From: Limisphaerales bacterium
Lineage (GTDB): Bacteria > Verrucomicrobiota > Verrucomicrobiia > Limisphaerales > UBA11358
Length of the DNA: 37,403 bases
Assembly (NCBI GenBank): GCA_043749955.1
Contig: JAYVCM010000134.1
Span: forward strand, 1 to 37,403
Reading direction: 5' to 3'
The translations under genes were made by a program, and so were the position numbers. Positions within the stretch are counted from its first letter, which is position 1. The number at the start of each line of letters is the position of its first letter. The notes under the pieces are model-generated. The model saw nothing but the letters and a program-made list of their open reading frames with translations. It had not been told where the DNA came from and made no database searches. Positions 11,228 through 21,037 of the stretch are shown here, in pieces.

Positions 11228-11289
11228 CCCCCTCATCCGCCCTGCGGGCACCTGCTCCCCCACCGGGGGAGCAGGCTGGGATGAGGGGG
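11228..11289. repeat. Nested GC-rich hairpin repeat (CCCCCTCATCC ... CCTGCTCCCC-loop-GGGGAGCAGG ... GGATGAGGGGG)
   Basis: Outer 11-bp arms at 11228..11238 and 11279..11289. Inner 10-bp arms at 11251..11260 and 11266..11275. Intergenic. Architecture is related to family I. Confidence 0.6.
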
Positions 11290-15987: not shown

Positions 15988-17169
15988 CTAGCTGCGAAGC
16001 TTGAATTCGGCTATTAACTCAGGTCGCCGAGCAAGAAGACGCTCCAAATGACTGTTAGCCCACATTTCGATTCTCATCGCGTCAGAGCTTTGATTGTGCT
16101 TTTCGATCCAGTCAATCGCGTCTGTTGTAAATCGTCCCGTCGTAACGACGATCAACTCGTCAACTCTGGGCGAATTCCAAAGCCTCATCTGAACCTGAAG
16201 TTCAGAAACGACTTTCAAATTTACTTTATCGGTGTGCTTGCACGCTAATATCACCCTCTGCTTTCGGCTTCCCGCCAGCGCATCTTGAAGAATGCGCTCC
16301 ACGGACAAATCCCTGCCCCGATCTGCTGCGTTTGTGTGAGTGAGCCATTGTGGGTTCTCGTATCCTTTAGTTTGATCAATCAGATTGAAAACCAATCTTT
16401 CAAAATCTTCAGGTGACAGTGCTTCCCAATTCAACTCTGTGGCCACTTGGCCTTGGGGTTTTGAACTGACCAGTTCTCCTAAATCTTTTGCAGTGACAGG
16501 AATCGGGTCAGACTCGGCATATAATGCGCGATCAAGCCATTGGCGAATATTCGGCCAGTCGTGAGACACGATGTCGTCATAGTCACCTCTCTGGCCAAAG
16601 GACAAATGCCTTGCCATGTCGCTCCATCGTTCAGGACGGCCAAGGCTTTTTCCGAGCAGCGCGTCAATGCTCTTGAATAAGGAAGTAAGTTCTGGCCACT
16701 TGGTTTTTGCCAATAGGATATTTGTTTTCTGTTTCTTCGCAGGTGACCGTAGTTCCTCAAGCATTAGTTCGATTCGCTTACATAGATCCTGAACTGCCTG
16801 ACGTGCGAGTTCGCGCCGTTTAGACTCAACTCGAAAGCGGTAGTCGCTGAGCACCTCGCCTTGATAATGGATTTGCGTGTCAAGTGCGACACGATCAGTA
16901 AACTCTCCGACCTCCAAAGTGTCTATTTTACTGCGGAAAATGTCATCAGGGTGTTCAAGGCAGATTTTTAATTCGAAACCGTCAATTGCTGGCATCTGTT
17001 TTGCAATCTGCTCAAATGAACGCTGCATCTGATAGTATTGCTCCTCGTCGCCAACTTGCACTTCGTCAATAGATGGCAGCAGTTTTTCTATCTGTTTCCA
17101 GAGATTATCGAGTTTGCCCAAGTTTGCCTCGACTGCCTCGAATTGTTTTAATGCTTCGTTTAGATCCAT
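15988..17169 (-). CDS. Restriction-endonuclease-like (Mrr-cat type, PD-(D/E)xK) protein with an uncharacterised helical N-terminal half of about 240 aa
   Basis: C-terminal region FERLVFNLIDQTKGYENPQWL...AADRGRDLSVERI...RVILACKH...ELIVVTTGRFTTDAIDWIEKH follows the Mrr catalytic-domain pattern (FE.L...L...GY, D-G-x-D, hydrophobic-x-x-K, vvTt..Ft..A). Markedly low GC: 38-43% in counted lines versus about 68% in murA. Confidence 0.7.
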   Translation of the reverse strand: MDLNEALKQFEAVEANLGKLDNLWKQIEKLLPSIDEVQVGDEEQYYQMQRSFEQIAKQMPAIDGFELKICLEHPDDIFRSKIDTLEVGEFTDRVALDTQIHYQGEVLSDYRFRVESKRRELARQAVQDLCKRIELMLEELRSPAKKQKTNILLAKTKWPELTSLFKSIDALLGKSLGRPERWSDMARHLSFGQRGDYDDIVSHDWPNIRQWLDRALYAESDPIPVTAKDLGELVSSKPQGQVATELNWEALSPEDFERLVFNLIDQTKGYENPQWLTHTNAADRGRDLSVERILQDALAGSRKQRVILACKHTDKVNLKVVSELQVQMRLWNSPRVDELIVVTTGRFTTDAIDWIEKHNQSSDAMRIEMWANSHLERLLARRPELIAEFKLRS

Positions 17170-18549: not shown

Positions 18550-19470
18550 TTATTTGCCGCTCGTTCGCGCGATTATGATTCTGGCGCGGTGAGAGTAGTC
18601 CTCCCGCACGGCTTCGACAACCCACTTTTCACTTTCAAAGATTTTTTTTATGGCGTCCGCCTGGCCGTCGCCGAATTCCACCATGATTTTTCCGTCCGGC
18701 TTGAGGAATGTTTTGGCCTCCGCCGCGAGCTTTCGGTAAAAATCCAGACCGTCCGCCCCGCCATCCAGCGCCAGCCGCGGGTCAAAGTCTCGGACTTCGG
18801 GATCCAGCGTGGCGATCTCGGCGGAGGGAATGTAGGGCGGGTTGCTGACGATCAAATCAAAGCGTAGTGGCACAGGCATCTTGCCTGTGAGTTCATTCTT
18901 TGAAACACACAGGCTAGAAGCCTGTGCCACTACCGGCAACGCCGCAAAACCATCGCCGGCTAAAAATTCAATTCTCTCCCCGACGTTGTTTCGCTCGGCG
19001 TTTTCTTTCGCCAGCGCCAGGGCTTCCGTGGAAATGTCCGTGGCAAAAATCTTTGCCTGCGGACATTTCGCCGCGATGGCAATGGCGATGCAGCCGCTGC
19101 CGGTGCAGAAGTCCAGGCAAGTTGAGAGTTGAGAGTTGAGAGTGGAGAGAAACTGCCAGCCAAGCTCCGCAAGCAATTCTGTTTCTGGACGCGGAACAAG
19201 CACTTGGCGGCTCACAGCAATTTCAAATCCGCAAAACGAGGTGGAGCCAATGATGTGCTGGAGCGGTTCGCGCAGGCCGCGCCGCTTGACGAGTTCACGC
19301 AGCCCGTCCGTTTCCGCCGCCGTCAGCGCGCGGTCGAAGTTCAGATACAATTTCATGCGCGGCATCTTGAGCAGGTGCGCAAGGAGCAGCTCCGTTTGGA
19401 GGCGCGGCGACTCGACATTTTTCTTGCCGAGAAAATCGGTGCTTTTCTGAATCGCTTCGAGGACGGTCAT
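18550..19470 (-). CDS. prmC: Release-factor glutamine N5-methyltransferase (HemK/PrmC), carrying two in-frame repeat insertions
   Basis: MTVLEAIQKSTDFLGKKNVESPRLQTELLLAHLL... is the HemK N-domain. SAM motif LDFCTGSGCIAIAIA. NPPY motif DLIVSNPPYIPS. The ATG at 19470 overlaps the stop of the upstream ORF6N gene (ATGA). The 110-aa upstream extension in the track is not credible. Confidence 0.92.
   Translation of the reverse strand: MTVLEAIQKSTDFLGKKNVESPRLQTELLLAHLLKMPRMKLYLNFDRALTAAETDGLRELVKRRGLREPLQHIIGSTSFCGFEIAVSRQVLVPRPETELLAELGWQFLSTLNSQLSTCLDFCTGSGCIAIAIAAKCPQAKIFATDISTEALALAKENAERNNVGERIEFLAGDGFAALPVVAQASSLCVSKNELTGKMPVPLRFDLIVSNPPYIPSAEIATLDPEVRDFDPRLALDGGADGLDFYRKLAAEAKTFLKPDGKIMVEFGDGQADAIKKIFESEKWVVEAVREDYSHRARIIIARTSGK
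18864..18933. repeat. Family G palindromic element (GTAGTGGCACAGGC ... GCCTGTGCCACTAC) inside prmC
   Basis: 70-nt element with 13-nt terminal inverted repeats and two internal hairpins (CACAGGC-N5-GCCTGTG). Second copy at 33771..33855 in fabD. Translated as VVAQASSLCVSKNELTGKMPVPL. Confidence 0.85.
19120..19147. repeat. Solo arm of the AGTTGAG/CTCAACT heptamer family inside prmC
   Basis: AGTTGAG x3 plus AGTGGAG in tandem on the + strand. No complementary arm nearby. Read on the coding (minus) strand as LSTLNSQLST. Confidence 0.8.
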
Positions 19471-20015
19471 TTCGTTTTTGCCTTCGGCGGGTCGTCCTCG
19501 TATTTGACATGGAAGCCCATTTCGCGGCGTTTGGGTTCGGGCGGCGTCATGAGCTGACGGATGGCATCGAAGACGAGCTTGAACTGCGCGTCGTATTTTT
19601 TCTCCAGCGCGGCGAACTGGCGGGAAAGTTCGGCGCTGGTGGCGAGCAACTGGCGCAGCCGCACGAAGGCGCGGACGACCTGCACGCTCGTCAGCGCGGC
19701 GCGTTCGCTGTTCAGGACGTTCGCGAGCATCAGCGCACCGTGTTCGGTGAAGGCAAAGGGGAGATGCGGCGAAAATTTCAGGCGCACGAGGTGGTCGCAA
19801 TTTGCGACCACCTGTGTTTTCTCCGCTTCCGACAATTGAAACGTGAAATCTGGCGGAAAGCGGCTGGCGTTGCGTTTGACCTGCTCATTCAGGCGTTTGG
19901 TCGTCACGCCGTAAAGCTCCGCCAAATCCGCGTCGAGCATCACCTTCTCGCCGCGAATCAAAAGTATGCTCCGCTCGATGAGTTCAAGTGGAACAAGTGC
20001 GCCCGGCTGGTTCAT
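19467..20015 (-). CDS. ORF6N (KilA-N-like) domain DNA-binding protein
   Basis: MNQPGALVPLELIERSILLIRGEKVMLDADLAELYGVTTKRLNEQVKRNASRFPPDFTFQL...LPFAFTEHGALMLANVLNSERA matches my recollection of the ORF6N pattern. The ATG at 20015 fits the family N-terminus. Its stop overlaps the prmC start. Confidence 0.85.
   Translation of the reverse strand: MNQPGALVPLELIERSILLIRGEKVMLDADLAELYGVTTKRLNEQVKRNASRFPPDFTFQLSEAEKTQVVANCDHLVRLKFSPHLPFAFTEHGALMLANVLNSERAALTSVQVVRAFVRLRQLLATSAELSRQFAALEKKYDAQFKLVFDAIRQLMTPPEPKRREMGFHVKYEDDPPKAKTK
19789..19813. promoter_or_regulatory. 25-nt perfect palindrome AGGTGGTCGCAA-T-TTGCGACCACCT inside the ORF6N CDS
   Basis: Verified base by base. Shares the 17-nt core GGTCGCAATTTGCGACC with the palindrome at 20100..20124. 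Function is unknown; an operator-like role is inferred. Confidence 0.5.
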
Positions 20016-20064
20016 GCGATGAAATTGCCAAATACCATCGTGGATTGCGAACTGCTTTTTAGGC

Positions 20065-20091
20065 GAACCGGTCACAATCTGTGACCGGTTC
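20065..20091. promoter_or_regulatory. 27-nt palindrome GAACCGGTCACA-ATC-TGTGACCGGTTC upstream of ORF6N
   Basis: Perfect 12-bp arms. Lies in the 110-bp spacer between the deacetylase stop and the ORF6N start. No U-run follows, so it is not a classical terminator. Confidence 0.5.
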
Positions 20092-20099
20092 AATTTCGT

Positions 20100-20124
20100 T
20101 TGAGGTCGCAATTTGCGACCTCAA
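20100..20124. promoter_or_regulatory. 25-nt perfect palindrome TTGAGGTCGCAA-T-TTGCGACCTCAA upstream of ORF6N
   Basis: Perfect 12-bp arms. Starts 2 nt from the deacetylase stop codon. The core is identical to the intragenic palindrome at 19789..19813. Confidence 0.5.
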
Positions 20125-20125
20125 G

Positions 20126-21037
20126 TCACTTCCCCGCCACGCCTTTGAGATACGCAAAAATCAGTTCCGGCAGATCGCGGCTGTAACCCCCTTCCAGCAG
20201 GCTGAACATCGGCACGTTCAGTTGGCGCAGGGAATGGCCGAGCCAGTGGAAATCTTCCGCGAGCAGCGGCGCGTCCGCCAGCGGGTCGCGCGCGTAGGCG
20301 TCGAACCCGGCGGACACGGCGATGAGGTCGGGCCGGAAATGTTTCAGGTCGCCCAGCGCGTGCGTGAGCGCGGCGCGATACGTCTCGCGCGAGGCGGCGG
20401 GCGCGACGGGATAATTGAAACAGTTGCGCCCCCGGCTCGTCCCGCCGGTGTTGGGATACATGGGATATTGGTGGATGGAAAAAAATTCGAGGCCGGGCCG
20501 GTTCAGCAAGATGTCTTCCGTGCCATTGCCGTGATGAACGTCAAAATCAAAAACGGCGACGCGTTTGAATCCGGCACCCCTCACCCCGGCCCTCTCCCCT
20601 CCGAGGGGAGAGGGAGAAGCATCGGCGACAGCTTCCAGCGCGGCGATGGCGACGTTGTTGAGATAGCAGAAGCCCATGGAGCGTTCGCGCGTGGCGTGAT
20701 GGCCGGGCGGGCGCATGAGGCTGAAAACATTTTTGCCAGCGCGCGCCAGCTCCAAAGCATCCAGCGCGGCGGCGACGGAAGCGCGGGCATTCTTTGCGAT
20801 GCCCGCAAAGAACGGCGTGTCGGCGTCAAAATCTTCCGGCACATCAAGGCGCTTCAGCATTTCCGGCGTGTGGGCGCGGAGGATTTGTTCGTCGGTCACG
20901 CTCGTTGGTGCCAGCCATGTGAGTTCCAGCTCCGTCTGTTTTTTCAAAAGCTCCACCGTGGAGGTGATGCGTTGCGGGCGTTCGGGATGGCCGGCGCGCG
21001 CGTAGCCGGTGCAATGTTCGTCAGTGATGATGGTCAC
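20126..21037 (-). CDS. Histone deacetylase / acetoin-utilisation (AcuC) / acetylpolyamine amidohydrolase family protein
   Basis: GHPERPQR, RPPGHHA, GFCYLNNVAIAA, FDFDVHHGNGTE and LEGGY motifs. GTG start at 21037. Contains a 45-nt family I repeat in frame. Confidence 0.9.
   Translation of the reverse strand: MTIITDEHCTGYARAGHPERPQRITSTVELLKKQTELELTWLAPTSVTDEQILRAHTPEMLKRLDVPEDFDADTPFFAGIAKNARASVAAALDALELARAGKNVFSLMRPPGHHATRERSMGFCYLNNVAIAALEAVADASPSPLGGERAGVRGAGFKRVAVFDFDVHHGNGTEDILLNRPGLEFFSIHQYPMYPNTGGTSRGRNCFNYPVAPAASRETYRAALTHALGDLKHFRPDLIAVSAGFDAYARDPLADAPLLAEDFHWLGHSLRQLNVPMFSLLEGGYSRDLPELIFAYLKGVAGK
20575..20619. repeat. Family I hairpin repeat inside the deacetylase CDS
   Basis: CACCCCTCACCCCGGCCCTCTCCCCTCCGAGGGGAGAGGGAGAAG is 45 nt (15 codons). 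10-bp stem CCCTCTCCCC/GGGGAGAGGG. Translated on the minus strand as SPSPLGGERAGVRG. Confidence 0.8.

Follow-up and report, generated by a model that had tools for sequence, protein, structure and literature searches.

A single ORF6N gene of a Limisphaerales bacterium raises the question of why nearly the same palindromic DNA stands both upstream of the gene and inside its coding region, and whether it is the DNA or the peptide that is conserved there. We examined the gene in the window, the whole stretch of 37,403 nt that was analysed, and in homologous loci. A sequence-only reading of the window had listed three perfect palindromes at this gene, and all three are present (Table 1). Perfect arms of at least 9 nt occur at six places in the window, and three of these are the palindromes in question. 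The 17-nt core GGTCGCAATTTGCGACC, described as shared by two palindromes 311 nt apart, is exact and occurs in exactly two copies in the 37.4-kb window. When up to 3 mismatches were allowed, 0 of 100 shuffles reached the number of matches found in the window. The internal palindrome spans codons Q68-L76 (QVVANCDHL), with the dyad centre at the second base of Asn72, and was also found at the matching site in homologues. The translations that had been read from the palindromes were reproduced: QVVANCDHLV in frame and RWSQIATTS in the shifted frame, LRSQIATSN for leader copy 1 and KLNRSQIVTGS for leader copy 2. The LNRSQIVTGS type, which is leader palindrome 2 here, is the internal site in relatives.

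Table 1. Features of the ORF6N locus in the window
Feature	Position	Strand	Remarks
Internal palindrome, AGGTGGTCGCAA-A-TTGCGACCACCT (gene strand)	19789..19813		Perfect 12-nt arms, 1-nt centre
Leader palindrome 1, TTGAGGTCGCAA-A-TTGCGACCTCAA	20100..20124		Perfect 12-nt arms, 1-nt centre; LRSQIATS type
Leader palindrome 2, GAACCGGTCACA-GAT-TGTGACCGGTTC	20065..20091		Perfect 12-nt arms, 3-nt centre; LNRSQIVTGS type
Leader segment, ~90 nt, with both leader palindromes	20033..20121	-	From alignment and gene tables
ORF6N gene, 182 aa	19467..20015	-	Winged-helix-like N-terminal domain, long coiled-coil helix, conserved C-terminal ..GF tail
ATGA overlap of ORF6N stop codon and prmC start codon	19467-19470	-
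Variable cassette, residues 62-85	19761..19832	-	Between strand 58-60 and strand 87-89
Predicted helix-turn-helix, residues 28-48, DLAELYGVTTKRLNEQVKRN	19872..19934	-	Most family-invariant residues
Long helices, residues 104-156, presumed coiled-coil dimerisation region	19548..19706	-	From the model

The gene lies in a housekeeping operon with the order deacetylase-ORF6N-prmC-murA. Its coupling to prmC by the ATGA overlap, noted earlier, is real and is conserved in the lineage (relatives L290-L293 and L531-L540). Leader palindrome 1 begins 2 nt past the stop codon of the deacetylase-like gene. A promoter scan of the leader, which is probably transcribed from the co-directional upstream gene, found nothing resembling a sigma-70 promoter. 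The leader segment is missing from the nearest syntenic relatives, whose deacetylase-ORF6N spacer is ~21 nt; since these relatives lack the upstream sites, the sites are not needed for expression. No integrase or recombinase was identified in the examined parts of the window. A gene for an Mrr-like nuclease (PDC-M58A, E 6e-12) starts 2.3 kb downstream of the ORF6N gene. Other in-frame palindromic insertions lie nearby, in the deacetylase-like gene (20590-20614) and in prmC (18864-18933).

A palindrome at a fixed place in ORF6N genes

In the ORF6N family, the palindrome is a DNA-level, perfectly dyad-symmetric site of ~27 bp. Its layout is 13+1+13 nt with a half-site of ~TTGAGGTCRCA; the half-site consensus is (T/G)(T/A)(G/T)G(A/T)GGTC(G/A)CA, followed by a 3-nt centre. 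About 90% of ORF6N genes, which come from >15 phyla as well as from plasmids and phages, have it at the matching position. Among them are Legionella, Bacteroidota and Treponema plasmid ORF6N genes and 33 of 41 distinct viral ORF6N genes; it is lost in a few homologues, e.g., Sulfuricurvum and Haliovirga. Among 74 genes sampled without bias across >15 phyla, perfect arms were at least 6 nt long in 68 genes and at least 8 nt long in 54. The mean arm length in the 74 genes was 10.6 nt versus 4.5 nt in synonymous-codon shuffles, and 43 genes had arms longer than in all of their 300 shuffles. Because the arms far exceed those of synonymous shuffles, the palindrome is not accounted for by the peptide. 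Watson-Crick pairing was at least 79% out to pair 13 from the centre and at background level beyond it, and the arms were 96% Watson-Crick across 124 distinct sites. We found no description of the element in the literature searched for ORF6N together with palindrome, or for the sequence strings themselves.

The position of the site is as restricted as its form. Among the family-type palindromes of 153 genes, 108 were at +200..+300 and 35 at -100..0, and most other 100-nt bins held 0-2 each. In ~325 kb of homologous loci, copies were confined to ORF6N genes and their leaders. In ~20% of ORF6N genes, the last ~100 nt before the start codon contain between one and five additional copies, often 10-30 nt from that codon. 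The half-site consensus of these upstream copies is the same as that of the internal ones (T-6 100%, C-5 88%, G-7 80%), and the spacer is 3 nt in 63/63. Their arms also covary: 134 cells had changed on both sides versus 52.8 in shuffles, and 0 of 500 shuffles were as high. Dyad symmetry, a conserved half-site and fixed spacing near the start, as expected of a palindromic operator, are thus found in ~20% of the genes, including that of the window.

Close relatives differ in their upstream copies through gain, loss and decay. According to the alignment, leader palindrome 1 is two compensated double changes apart from its ortholog in relative L202, and it has decayed in L539/L540, which have a AGGTGGTC-like site in place of leader palindrome 2. 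Upstream sites of several types form an ordered array before one gene, and sites within one locus differ in their outer arms. A comparison of upstream sites with the gene's own internal site gave 4.42 versus 3.86 of 8 positions, a level reached by 75 of 2000 permutations; this suggests a weak match of type between the two. We also considered upstream palindromes as silent donor cassettes. This was ruled out; they comprise only the 25-33-nt palindrome, without the type-specific tail.

The ordered arrays of several site types, together with tandem paralogues of different cassette types, would also be in line with a site that something other than the gene's own protein recognises, be it a host nucleoid or structure-specific protein, a protein from a phage, or ORF6N paralogues of other types that cross-regulate. 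The presence of the core in many viral contigs without a nearby ORF6N gene points the same way. In IMG/VR the core had at least 120 matches, most of them without ORF6N and often flanked like terminators. However, the two control palindromes matched for composition had 37 and at least 120 matches. The orphan viral matches are therefore not above background, and the palindrome as an independent phage-genome element is not interpretable. Against another factor, there is also the tight tie of the site to ORF6N genes in cellular genomes, and other genes are not consistently linked. We regard this explanation as improbable.

Two codon phases and an exchanged cassette

The palindrome was in codon phase 1 in 49 genes, in phase 0 in 66 and in phase 2 in none. 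Phase 1 yields VVANCDH, and phase 0 yields RSQI(V/A)T; the dyad centre is shifted by 2 nt between the types, inside a segment of constant 108 nt. Both peptide variants that the sequence-only reading had mentioned occur at the site among 150 representatives clustered at 50% identity, as EVV[AT]NCDHL..LKFS and [LR]RSQ[IF][VA]T[SL]... Its view that family members read the palindrome in different frames is right as to the two phases, but the variants are not simple frameshift derivatives. A frameshift origin was ruled out by DNA alignment, in which ~70 nt are wholly replaced with no residual similarity. As the alignments read, the two peptide variants are alternative ~70-nt cassettes that hold the palindrome. 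These are exchanged between genes otherwise about 92% identical, and their boundaries are in conserved coding flanks, ~35 nt on each side of the palindrome. In AlphaFold2 models, the cassette of the window forms two short helices with a turn at the palindrome centre, and the type B cassette forms the end of a helix followed by a Gly/Arg-rich loop.

Because the site is at the same spot in two reading frames and recurs upstream of genes, it can be said that the DNA itself is kept, not the peptide. Covariation within the coding sequence leads to the same result. At type A sites, silent changes in one arm and amino-acid changes in the opposite arm were concordant in 20/20 cases (GCA/TGC 11, ACA/TGT 9, discordant 0). 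At type B sites, which were anchored by the peptide and not chosen by the palindrome, Ser TCG occurred with Ala GCG in 31 cases and Ser TCA with Val GTG in 25, and none was discordant (56/56). Orthologous sites of close relatives are separated by compensated double changes; in Treponema, such a change replaced Q by K together with A by S. The earlier proposal that the nucleotide palindrome is conserved, and not the peptide, is thus strongly supported by the shuffles, the covariation and the two codon phases. This suggests that a non-coding function fixes the nucleotides so strongly that the protein must encode them, using two frames that give different local structures. The ORF6N Pfam motifs RSQIVTS and VANCDH would then become by-products of a DNA site. 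More generally, covariation of silent sites with amino acids can expose hidden cis elements within coding regions.

Perfect complementarity might also reflect mRNA hairpins in the 5' leader and coding region that control translation, processing (e.g., by RNase III) or stability, a role proposed by the sequence-only reading. The predicted hairpins are stable, at -12 to -15 kcal/mol when folded as DNA (z-scores ~-7), upstream copies 10-30 nt from the start could mask the ribosome-binding site, and the leader is probably transcribed. However, selected RNA stems normally tolerate G·U. Mismatches of the G·U type versus the A·C type numbered 19 versus 13 at internal sites and 19 versus 27 at upstream sites. 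Because G·U is not in excess over A·C, the constraint is on the DNA and not on the sense RNA. Furthermore, A-T pairs close the 3-nt centre, stable tetraloops are absent, and a sequence-specific half-site is conserved in both arms. No Rfam 15 covariance model matched near its gathering score in 19400-20200. A sense-strand U-tract is absent after the hairpins, and only weak T-rich tails were found, on the antisense strand, unlike in an intrinsic terminator. RNA hairpins are therefore disfavoured and in our view very unlikely.

The strictly Watson-Crick symmetry, without G·U bias, is equally what a selfish element would show, that is, a self-perpetuating palindrome useless to the gene, whose arms are kept perfect and lengthened by template switching. 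The protein would then put up with any peptide encoded there, as in Rickettsia genes that contain in-frame palindromic elements. Very fast compensated flips between near-identical relatives, the turnover and decay of upstream copies among close relatives, the in-frame palindromic insertions in the deacetylase-like gene and prmC of the same genome, and the difference in predicted structure between the two peptide forms all speak for it. On the other hand, position and half-site are kept across >15 phyla, plasmids and phages, and variation is limited to particular positions. Non-coding copies retain the GGTCRCA consensus and the exact 3-nt spacer, and copies are restricted to two places relative to the gene. 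Neutral survival this deep, at one spot of one family, is not expected, which leaves a purely selfish palindrome a small chance.

The exchange of cassettes raises the possibility that the palindrome serves recombination or mobility and not regulation: a DNA hairpin would drive cassette exchange, insertion of units, deletion and tandem amplification of ORF6N. In addition to the cassette swaps, tandem paralogue arrays and truncated copies ending at or near the palindrome were observed (the end of L239 is at HMM position 84 and the start of L026 at 83, and the frame of L008 shifts at 71-73). Extra in-frame units are present inside B. ovatus and P0176 genes. The upstream site of L539 equals the internal site of the window over 22 nt, which suggests ectopic conversion. 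Modules follow a split carB N-half gene, with direct repeats of 65-130 nt on their flanks, and plasmid ORF6N genes often adjoin integrases or recombinases. However, because the cassette boundaries lie in the coding flanks outside the palindrome, ordinary homologous recombination between paralogues suffices for the swaps. A six-frame search of 161 genome, metagenome and window loci on both strands gave no opposite-strand partial ORF6N match, and the inverted arrangement was absent. Eight independent contigs of the window's strain were identical in the leader and region and encoded an identical protein. A recombinase is not consistently linked to ORF6N genes, and the clustering within 100 nt of start codons with a conserved half-site resembles a cis-regulatory layout. 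The inversion or deletion switch suggested earlier thus has no support in the loci searched. There are signs of ectopic exchange between internal and upstream sites, and of breakpoints at the palindrome. We consider it unlikely, though conceivable, that recombination is what the site is for.

The ORF6N protein and its putative target

The protein of the window is an ORF6N protein (PF10543), with 101.7 bits versus a cut-off of 27.8 over profile positions 2-86 of 86. ORF6N was reportedly grouped with KilA-N-type domains by Iyer et al. 2002. An AlphaFold2 model (pLDDT 90.6) predicts a helix-turn-helix, a wing insert and a long helix, so that the protein looks like a DNA-binding dimer of winged-helix plus coiled-coil type. 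In this predicted arrangement of helix-turn-helix, wing and long dimerising helix it resembles MerR, RacA and MarR dimers, which bind palindromic operators. Unlike for these proteins, binding by ORF6N is putative: fold matches (MarR, MerR, RacA, Ski-DHD) were weak, with all Foldseek E-values >0.1, and a sequence search of the PDB matched designed coiled coils only, with no sequence relation to the MerR, RacA or MarR types. An NCBIfam search gave no match. The PADLOC defence candidate PDC-S05 matched at full length (PDLC04856, E 4.2e-52, profile positions 5-171 of 177); the PADLOC scan returned PDC-S05 models only and no BstA homology. PDC-S05 comprises 32,002 representative clusters. A representative was reported to cut plating of T7 and T5 ~1000-fold in E. 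coli; because a RhuM domain is present, the tested protein may belong to another subfamily.

Among the three roles proposed by the sequence-only reading, an operator, that is, the protein's own putative binding site, appears to fit best because of the DNA symmetry, the half-site in non-coding copies, the 3-nt spacing, the clustering at starts and the winged-helix protein. We assign a probability of about 0.5 to the reading that the palindrome is a putative DNA target of the ORF6N protein itself, giving autoregulation and perhaps self-recognition. The winged-helix plus coiled-coil dimer would bind the palindrome as its cognate target. Binding at the upstream copies and at the copy at ~+214 would result in autoregulation as operator, roadblock or loop, and may also allow self-recognition of the DNA that carries the gene, paralleling aba and parS inside parB. 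If so, an abundant uncharacterised candidate defence family, PDC-S05, would gain a concrete candidate DNA ligand and a mechanistic hypothesis of self-recognition or autoregulation, as with BstA-aba.

Several points speak against a target of the protein. The upstream sites are dispensable, sites of one locus match its internal site only weakly, and the palindrome itself is not obligatory, being lost in a few homologues. In addition, the freely varying positions -4, -9, -11 and -12 are still perfectly complementary, and the arms extend to 13-17 nt. Because a duplex-bound homodimer does not need such complementarity, an extra assumption is required. Either the site may act as, or pass through, a hairpin or cruciform, or template switching within the palindrome may copy a change into the other arm. 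As a separate observation that also speaks against a target, the context of the window is housekeeping, with no obvious defence island or prophage.

Because the site is inside the ~70-nt cassette that encodes the variable wing, a protein variant is passed on along with its site variant. A bolder form of the target reading, which we think rather unlikely, is that the palindrome both encodes the specificity-determining wing and serves as the cognate DNA ligand of that variant, with upstream arrays that cross-regulate. If this were true, one swap of a ~70-nt cassette would change protein specificity and target in a single step, and a widespread candidate phage-defence family would have a self-referential specificity module. 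Ordered upstream arrays, with one site of every type seen in the clade, would then allow cross-type regulation or immunity among paralogues and mobile elements.

Comparison with known systems

BstA, which acts in defence, carries a KilA-N-like DNA-binding domain at its N-terminus (Owen et al. 2021, PMC8585504). Its aba is a short cis DNA element that overlaps the bstA coding sequence and acts as DNA, and BstA variants each have their own cognate element (PMC8585504). aba is 63 bp long and non-palindromic, extends across the start of the gene and has direct CCCGCC repeats as its boundaries (PMC8585504). The ORF6N case is similar in that a cis element overlaps its own gene and the window protein matches a defence candidate. 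Unlike aba, the ORF6N element is perfectly palindromic, lies at ~+214 and has further copies upstream. The gene belongs to a chromosomal housekeeping operon that relatives share, not to a prophage, and its protein has no match to a BstA model. The element inside the ORF6N gene covaries with cassette type by construction, and its form and position differ from those of aba.

Intragenic dyad sites are known from parS inside parB/spo0J, lacO2 in lacZ and the PurR operator in purB. As in parS/parB, a dyad site for a dimeric binder would here lie inside the binder's own gene, ORF6N binding being putative. Unlike the ORF6N site, parS, lacO2 and the PurR sites are conserved as sequences, with arms of 7-8 bp, and are not known to show compensated changes or to form part of a swappable specificity cassette. 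To our knowledge, no parS or intragenic operator has been reported that members of a protein family read in two different frames.

The ORF6N palindrome shares with integron attC sites and quasi-palindrome template-switch hotspots the intrastrand pairing of DNA and the joint change of arms. attC sites, however, are imperfect, have extrahelical strand-marking bases and show little sequence conservation; they flank cassettes and depend on IntI. ORF6N arms are perfect, the core is conserved, the site is inside the gene, and an integrase is not linked. Rickettsia RPEs and REP-like elements are likewise palindromic DNA translated in insertion-tolerant protein loops, and the window has insertions of this kind in the deacetylase-like gene and in prmC. 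RPE and REP elements are lineage-specific and scattered over many unrelated genes and intergenic regions. Unlike the scatter expected of REP/BIME or RPE, the only three palindrome copies in 37 kb are all at the ORF6N gene. In the sequence examined, the ORF6N palindrome occupies one position in one family of many phyla and otherwise stands just upstream.

Palindrome conservation in ORF6N genes

The three palindromes of the window proved exact as described in the sequence-only reading, with arms of 12 nt and a centre of 1 or 3 nt, and the window has two copies of the 17-nt core at a distance of 311 nt. As many matches to this core with at most three mismatches were seen in 0/100 shuffles. Perfect arms of 9 nt or longer occur at six places in the window, and three of these are the palindromes in question. 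Folding of each in single-stranded DNA yields -12 to -15 kcal/mol (z-scores of about -7). The internal site is read QVVANCDHLV in frame and RWSQIATTS when shifted, and the leader copies are read LRSQIATSN (copy 1) and KLNRSQIVTGS (copy 2), also in agreement with that reading. The ATGA overlap between ORF6N and prmC, noticed earlier, is kept in relatives, as is the gene order deacetylase-ORF6N-prmC-murA.

Features of the window around the ORF6N gene, with other repeats
Feature	Position	Strand	Remarks
Deacetylase-like gene (Hist_deacetyl)	21037-20126	minus	
Spacer, deacetylase-like gene to ORF6N gene			110 nt
ORF6N gene	20015-19467	minus	182 aa; PF10543, 101.7 bits
prmC	19470-18550	minus	ATGA overlap with ORF6N stop codon
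murA	after prmC	minus	
Mrr-like nuclease gene	15988-17169	minus	393 aa; C-terminal Mrr_cat domain; matches PADLOC candidate PDC-M58A, E 6e-12; directly after murA, 2.3 kb downstream of ORF6N gene
Leader site 1	20100-20124		
Leader site 2	20065-20091		
Internal site	19789-19813		
Palindrome in deacetylase-like gene	20590-20614		perfect, in frame; 12-nt arms; CCCTCTCCCCTC-C-GAGGGGAGAGGG, within ...SPSPLGGERAGVRG...
Inverted repeat in prmC	18864-18933		in frame; 30-nt arms, 90% complementary, 10 nt apart; encodes ...VVAQASSLCVSKNELTGKMPVPL...
Tandem repeat	19120-19147		AGTTGAG-like
G/C-rich palindromes similar to that at 20590-20614	45-63, 2030-2048, 11251-11275		

The ORF6N family comprises 32,002 clusters at 50% identity (E <=0.001). 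Both peptide variants named in the sequence-only reading were found at the palindrome position within the 150 best representatives, namely type A, EVV[AT]NCDHLxxLK[FY]S, and type B, [LR]RSQ[IF][VA]T[SL] followed by Gly/Arg-rich tails. To sample loci without regard to the palindrome, the peptide pattern [AV]FTE[HQ]G.. was searched in a single genome of each species, and this yielded 80 loci from more than 15 phyla with 48-70% identity. At the common spot, 68 of their 74 ORF6N genes have a palindrome with perfect arms of 6 nt or more; arms reach at least 8 nt in 54 and up to 17 nt in the longest, and both peptide variants are included. The mean best arm was 10.6 nt, against 4.5 nt in shuffles of synonymous codons that preserved each peptide and the codon usage of the gene, and the observed arm exceeded all 300 shuffles in 43 of the 74 genes. 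This bears out the proposal that the nucleotide palindrome, not the peptide, is conserved. Pairing is at least 79% up to 13 pairs from the centre and at background level further out, so the unit is about 27 nt. Among viruses, 33 of 41 distinct genes carry the palindrome, and plasmid-borne genes of Legionella, Segatella, Bacteroides and Treponema carry it too; it was lost in a few genes (Sulfuricurvum, Haliovirga).

Family members do read the palindrome in different frames. Of the codon phases, the dyad centre uses phase 1 in type A (49 genes) and phase 0 in type B (66 genes), and never phase 2. Its distance is 61 or 63 nt from the preceding RFP anchor and 47 or 45 nt to the following AFTE anchor, adding up to 108 nt in type A and the commonest type B arrangement. 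Codons on the two arms covary, with silent positions tracking amino-acid changes. In type A, Ala GCA pairs with Cys TGC (11) and Thr ACA with Cys TGT (9), with no discordant pair. In type B, where sites were located by peptide only, the partner of Ser TCG is Ala GCG (31) and that of Ser TCA is Val GTG (25), again with none discordant; less common combinations are Cys TGC/Gly GGC, Leu TTG/Ala GCA and Phe TTC/Gly GGA. In the Treponema core, GGTCGAAAATTTCGACC, a compensated change replaces two amino acids. Among 124 distinct internal sites, 1422/1488 pairs are Watson-Crick. Such pairing could reflect an RNA hairpin, and a selected RNA stem is expected to be rich in G·U. However, G·U was not enriched among the mismatches: the internal sites have 19 of G·U type, 13 of A·C type and 34 of other types, and 51 upstream sites have 19, 27 and 34, respectively. 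No Rfam family matched. As judged from these substitutions, the constraint is on DNA and not on sense RNA.

Upstream copies and their turnover

A search for the palindrome upstream of ORF6N genes found it in 31 of 153 genes with flanking sequence, in one to five copies each. In 100-nt bins, 108 family-type palindromes lie at +200 to +300, 35 at -100 to 0 and 6 at -200 to -100, and other bins hold 0-2. The non-coding copies share the half-site consensus of the coding copies (T-6 100%, C-5 88%, G-7 80%, G-8 75%), and the TCRCA-TGYGA spacer is 3 nt in 63/63 upstream cases. Their outer arms, which played no part in selecting them, are paired in 86.2% of cells against 67.0% in shuffles, and 134 cells differ on both sides (52.8 in shuffles). 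Their covariation scored 0.502 against 0.160, a level reached in 0/500 shuffles, and slid controls scored 0.07-0.16. This comparison of sequences shows that ORF6N genes are associated, at two places, with an element of DNA that is dyad-symmetric and sequence-specific and whose two arms evolve in concert.

In several loci of Verrucomicrobiota, the clade of the window, sites form an ordered array that lies about 20 nt before the ATG: TTGAGGT(C/G)(G/C)CA, AACCGGTCACA, T(C/T)AAGGTCACA and AGGTGGTCRCA. These types equal the set of internal types seen in the clade. A conserved 25-nt box, GGTGGGGCGAGCGTCCCCGCGAGCC, lies about 20-30 nt upstream of the array in four loci with different neighbours (L002, L205, L208, L218), and may represent a promoter, the boundary of the module or a further repeat element.

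In close relatives of the window the leader turns over. Four loci (L290, L203, L204, L222) have a spacer of about 21 nt without a palindrome; an inserted segment of about 60-90 nt holds one in L202 and two in the window, whose site 1 is two compensated double changes away from the L202 site. In L539/L540, with a protein 92% identical to that of the window, site 1 has decayed, site 2 was replaced by sequence equal to the internal site of the window over 22 nt, and the internal site has a compensated G/A plus C/T change. The leader is identical in eight contigs from other samples with an identical protein.

Cassette exchange and mobility

Outside the variable segment, L205 (type A) and L215 (type B) share 92% identity and their DNA flanks are nearly identical, but about 70 nt between FMFQL and LPYAFTE are wholly different. 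This indicates that the variants were swapped, and rules out that they arose by frameshift. Tandem paralogues of different types occur as three genes in L069 and two each in L060, L074, L035 and L073; L037 has two full genes and one 5'-truncated copy. Truncated copies end or start at the palindrome, which may instead be a recombination or mobility site. An inversion between copies had also been suggested, but no partial ORF6N copy on the opposite strand was found in the loci searched, and thus there is no sign of an inversion switch.

In ten loci (L205, at 1-2200, L208, L215, L217-L221, L225 and L226), the array and ORF6N module follows a gene for the N-terminal half of CarB ending ...TKIDRWFLVQIKEIVDFEEELAGAKN*, and is followed by a 65-130-nt direct repeat of the 3' end of that gene, as if tandem cassettes were integrating at the gene's end in this hotspot. 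On a Treponema saccharophilum plasmid (L287, 738-1634), a palindrome-bearing ORF6N gene lies between hsdM and hsdS of a type I restriction-modification system and has a gene for a small winged-helix regulator as its neighbour. Elsewhere on plasmids, copies are found next to integrases, recombinases or transposases.

The ORF6N protein and the possible role of the palindrome

The AlphaFold2 model of the window protein (pLDDT 90.6) has a helix-turn-helix (28-48), two strands (58-60 and 87-89) with the cassette, the variable segment around the palindrome, between them, and a long helix (104-140). The type A cassette is modelled as two short helices with a turn at the palindrome centre, and that of a type B protein as a helix end and a flexible Gly/Arg-rich loop; the same DNA would thus encode different local structures. 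Fold matches to winged-helix DNA binders (Ski/Dachshund, MarR, MerR, RacA) were weak (E >0.1). PHROGs labels the protein an anti-repressor, and PADLOC assigns it to the single-gene defence candidate PDC-S05 (E 4e-52), one representative of which is reported in a preprint to lower T7 and T5 plating about 1000-fold.

From these comparisons we infer that the element is a putative target of the ORF6N protein itself; alternatively, it may be recognised by another factor. A dimer on duplex DNA would not require freely varying positions to change in concert. Either the site would function in a hairpin or cruciform form, or changes would be copied from arm to arm through template switching inside the palindrome. 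A selfish, self-correcting palindrome is a further alternative. The closest functional precedent is BstA-aba, in which the element aba is DNA-based and variant-specific and overlaps the gene for BstA, a KilA-N-like defence protein (PMC8585504), although aba differs from the ORF6N palindrome in form and position and the PADLOC scan gave no BstA homology for the window protein. A search of literature outside subscription journals, which is no proof of absence, found no paper linking ORF6N to a palindrome or containing these sequences.

Palindromes of other kinds were also observed. The palindrome at 20590-20614 looks like a REP- or RPE-like element inserted in coding sequence, and prmC, with its inverted repeat, provides another case of a palindromic insertion in a housekeeping gene. 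The composition-matched control palindrome TGCGRCAAWTTGYCGCA occurs in at least 120 viral contigs (IMG/VR, L331-L410), in several twice, and is apparently used as a repeated element by some phage group. As for the ORF6N palindrome itself, some family members, namely P0176 and the protein from a Bacteroides ovatus plasmid (L289, ORF6N gene at 759-1310), have two motifs encoded by it in tandem, CLRSQIATLEKG...NLRSQTVTSRWGG. In-frame duplication or insertion of palindrome units is therefore possible.
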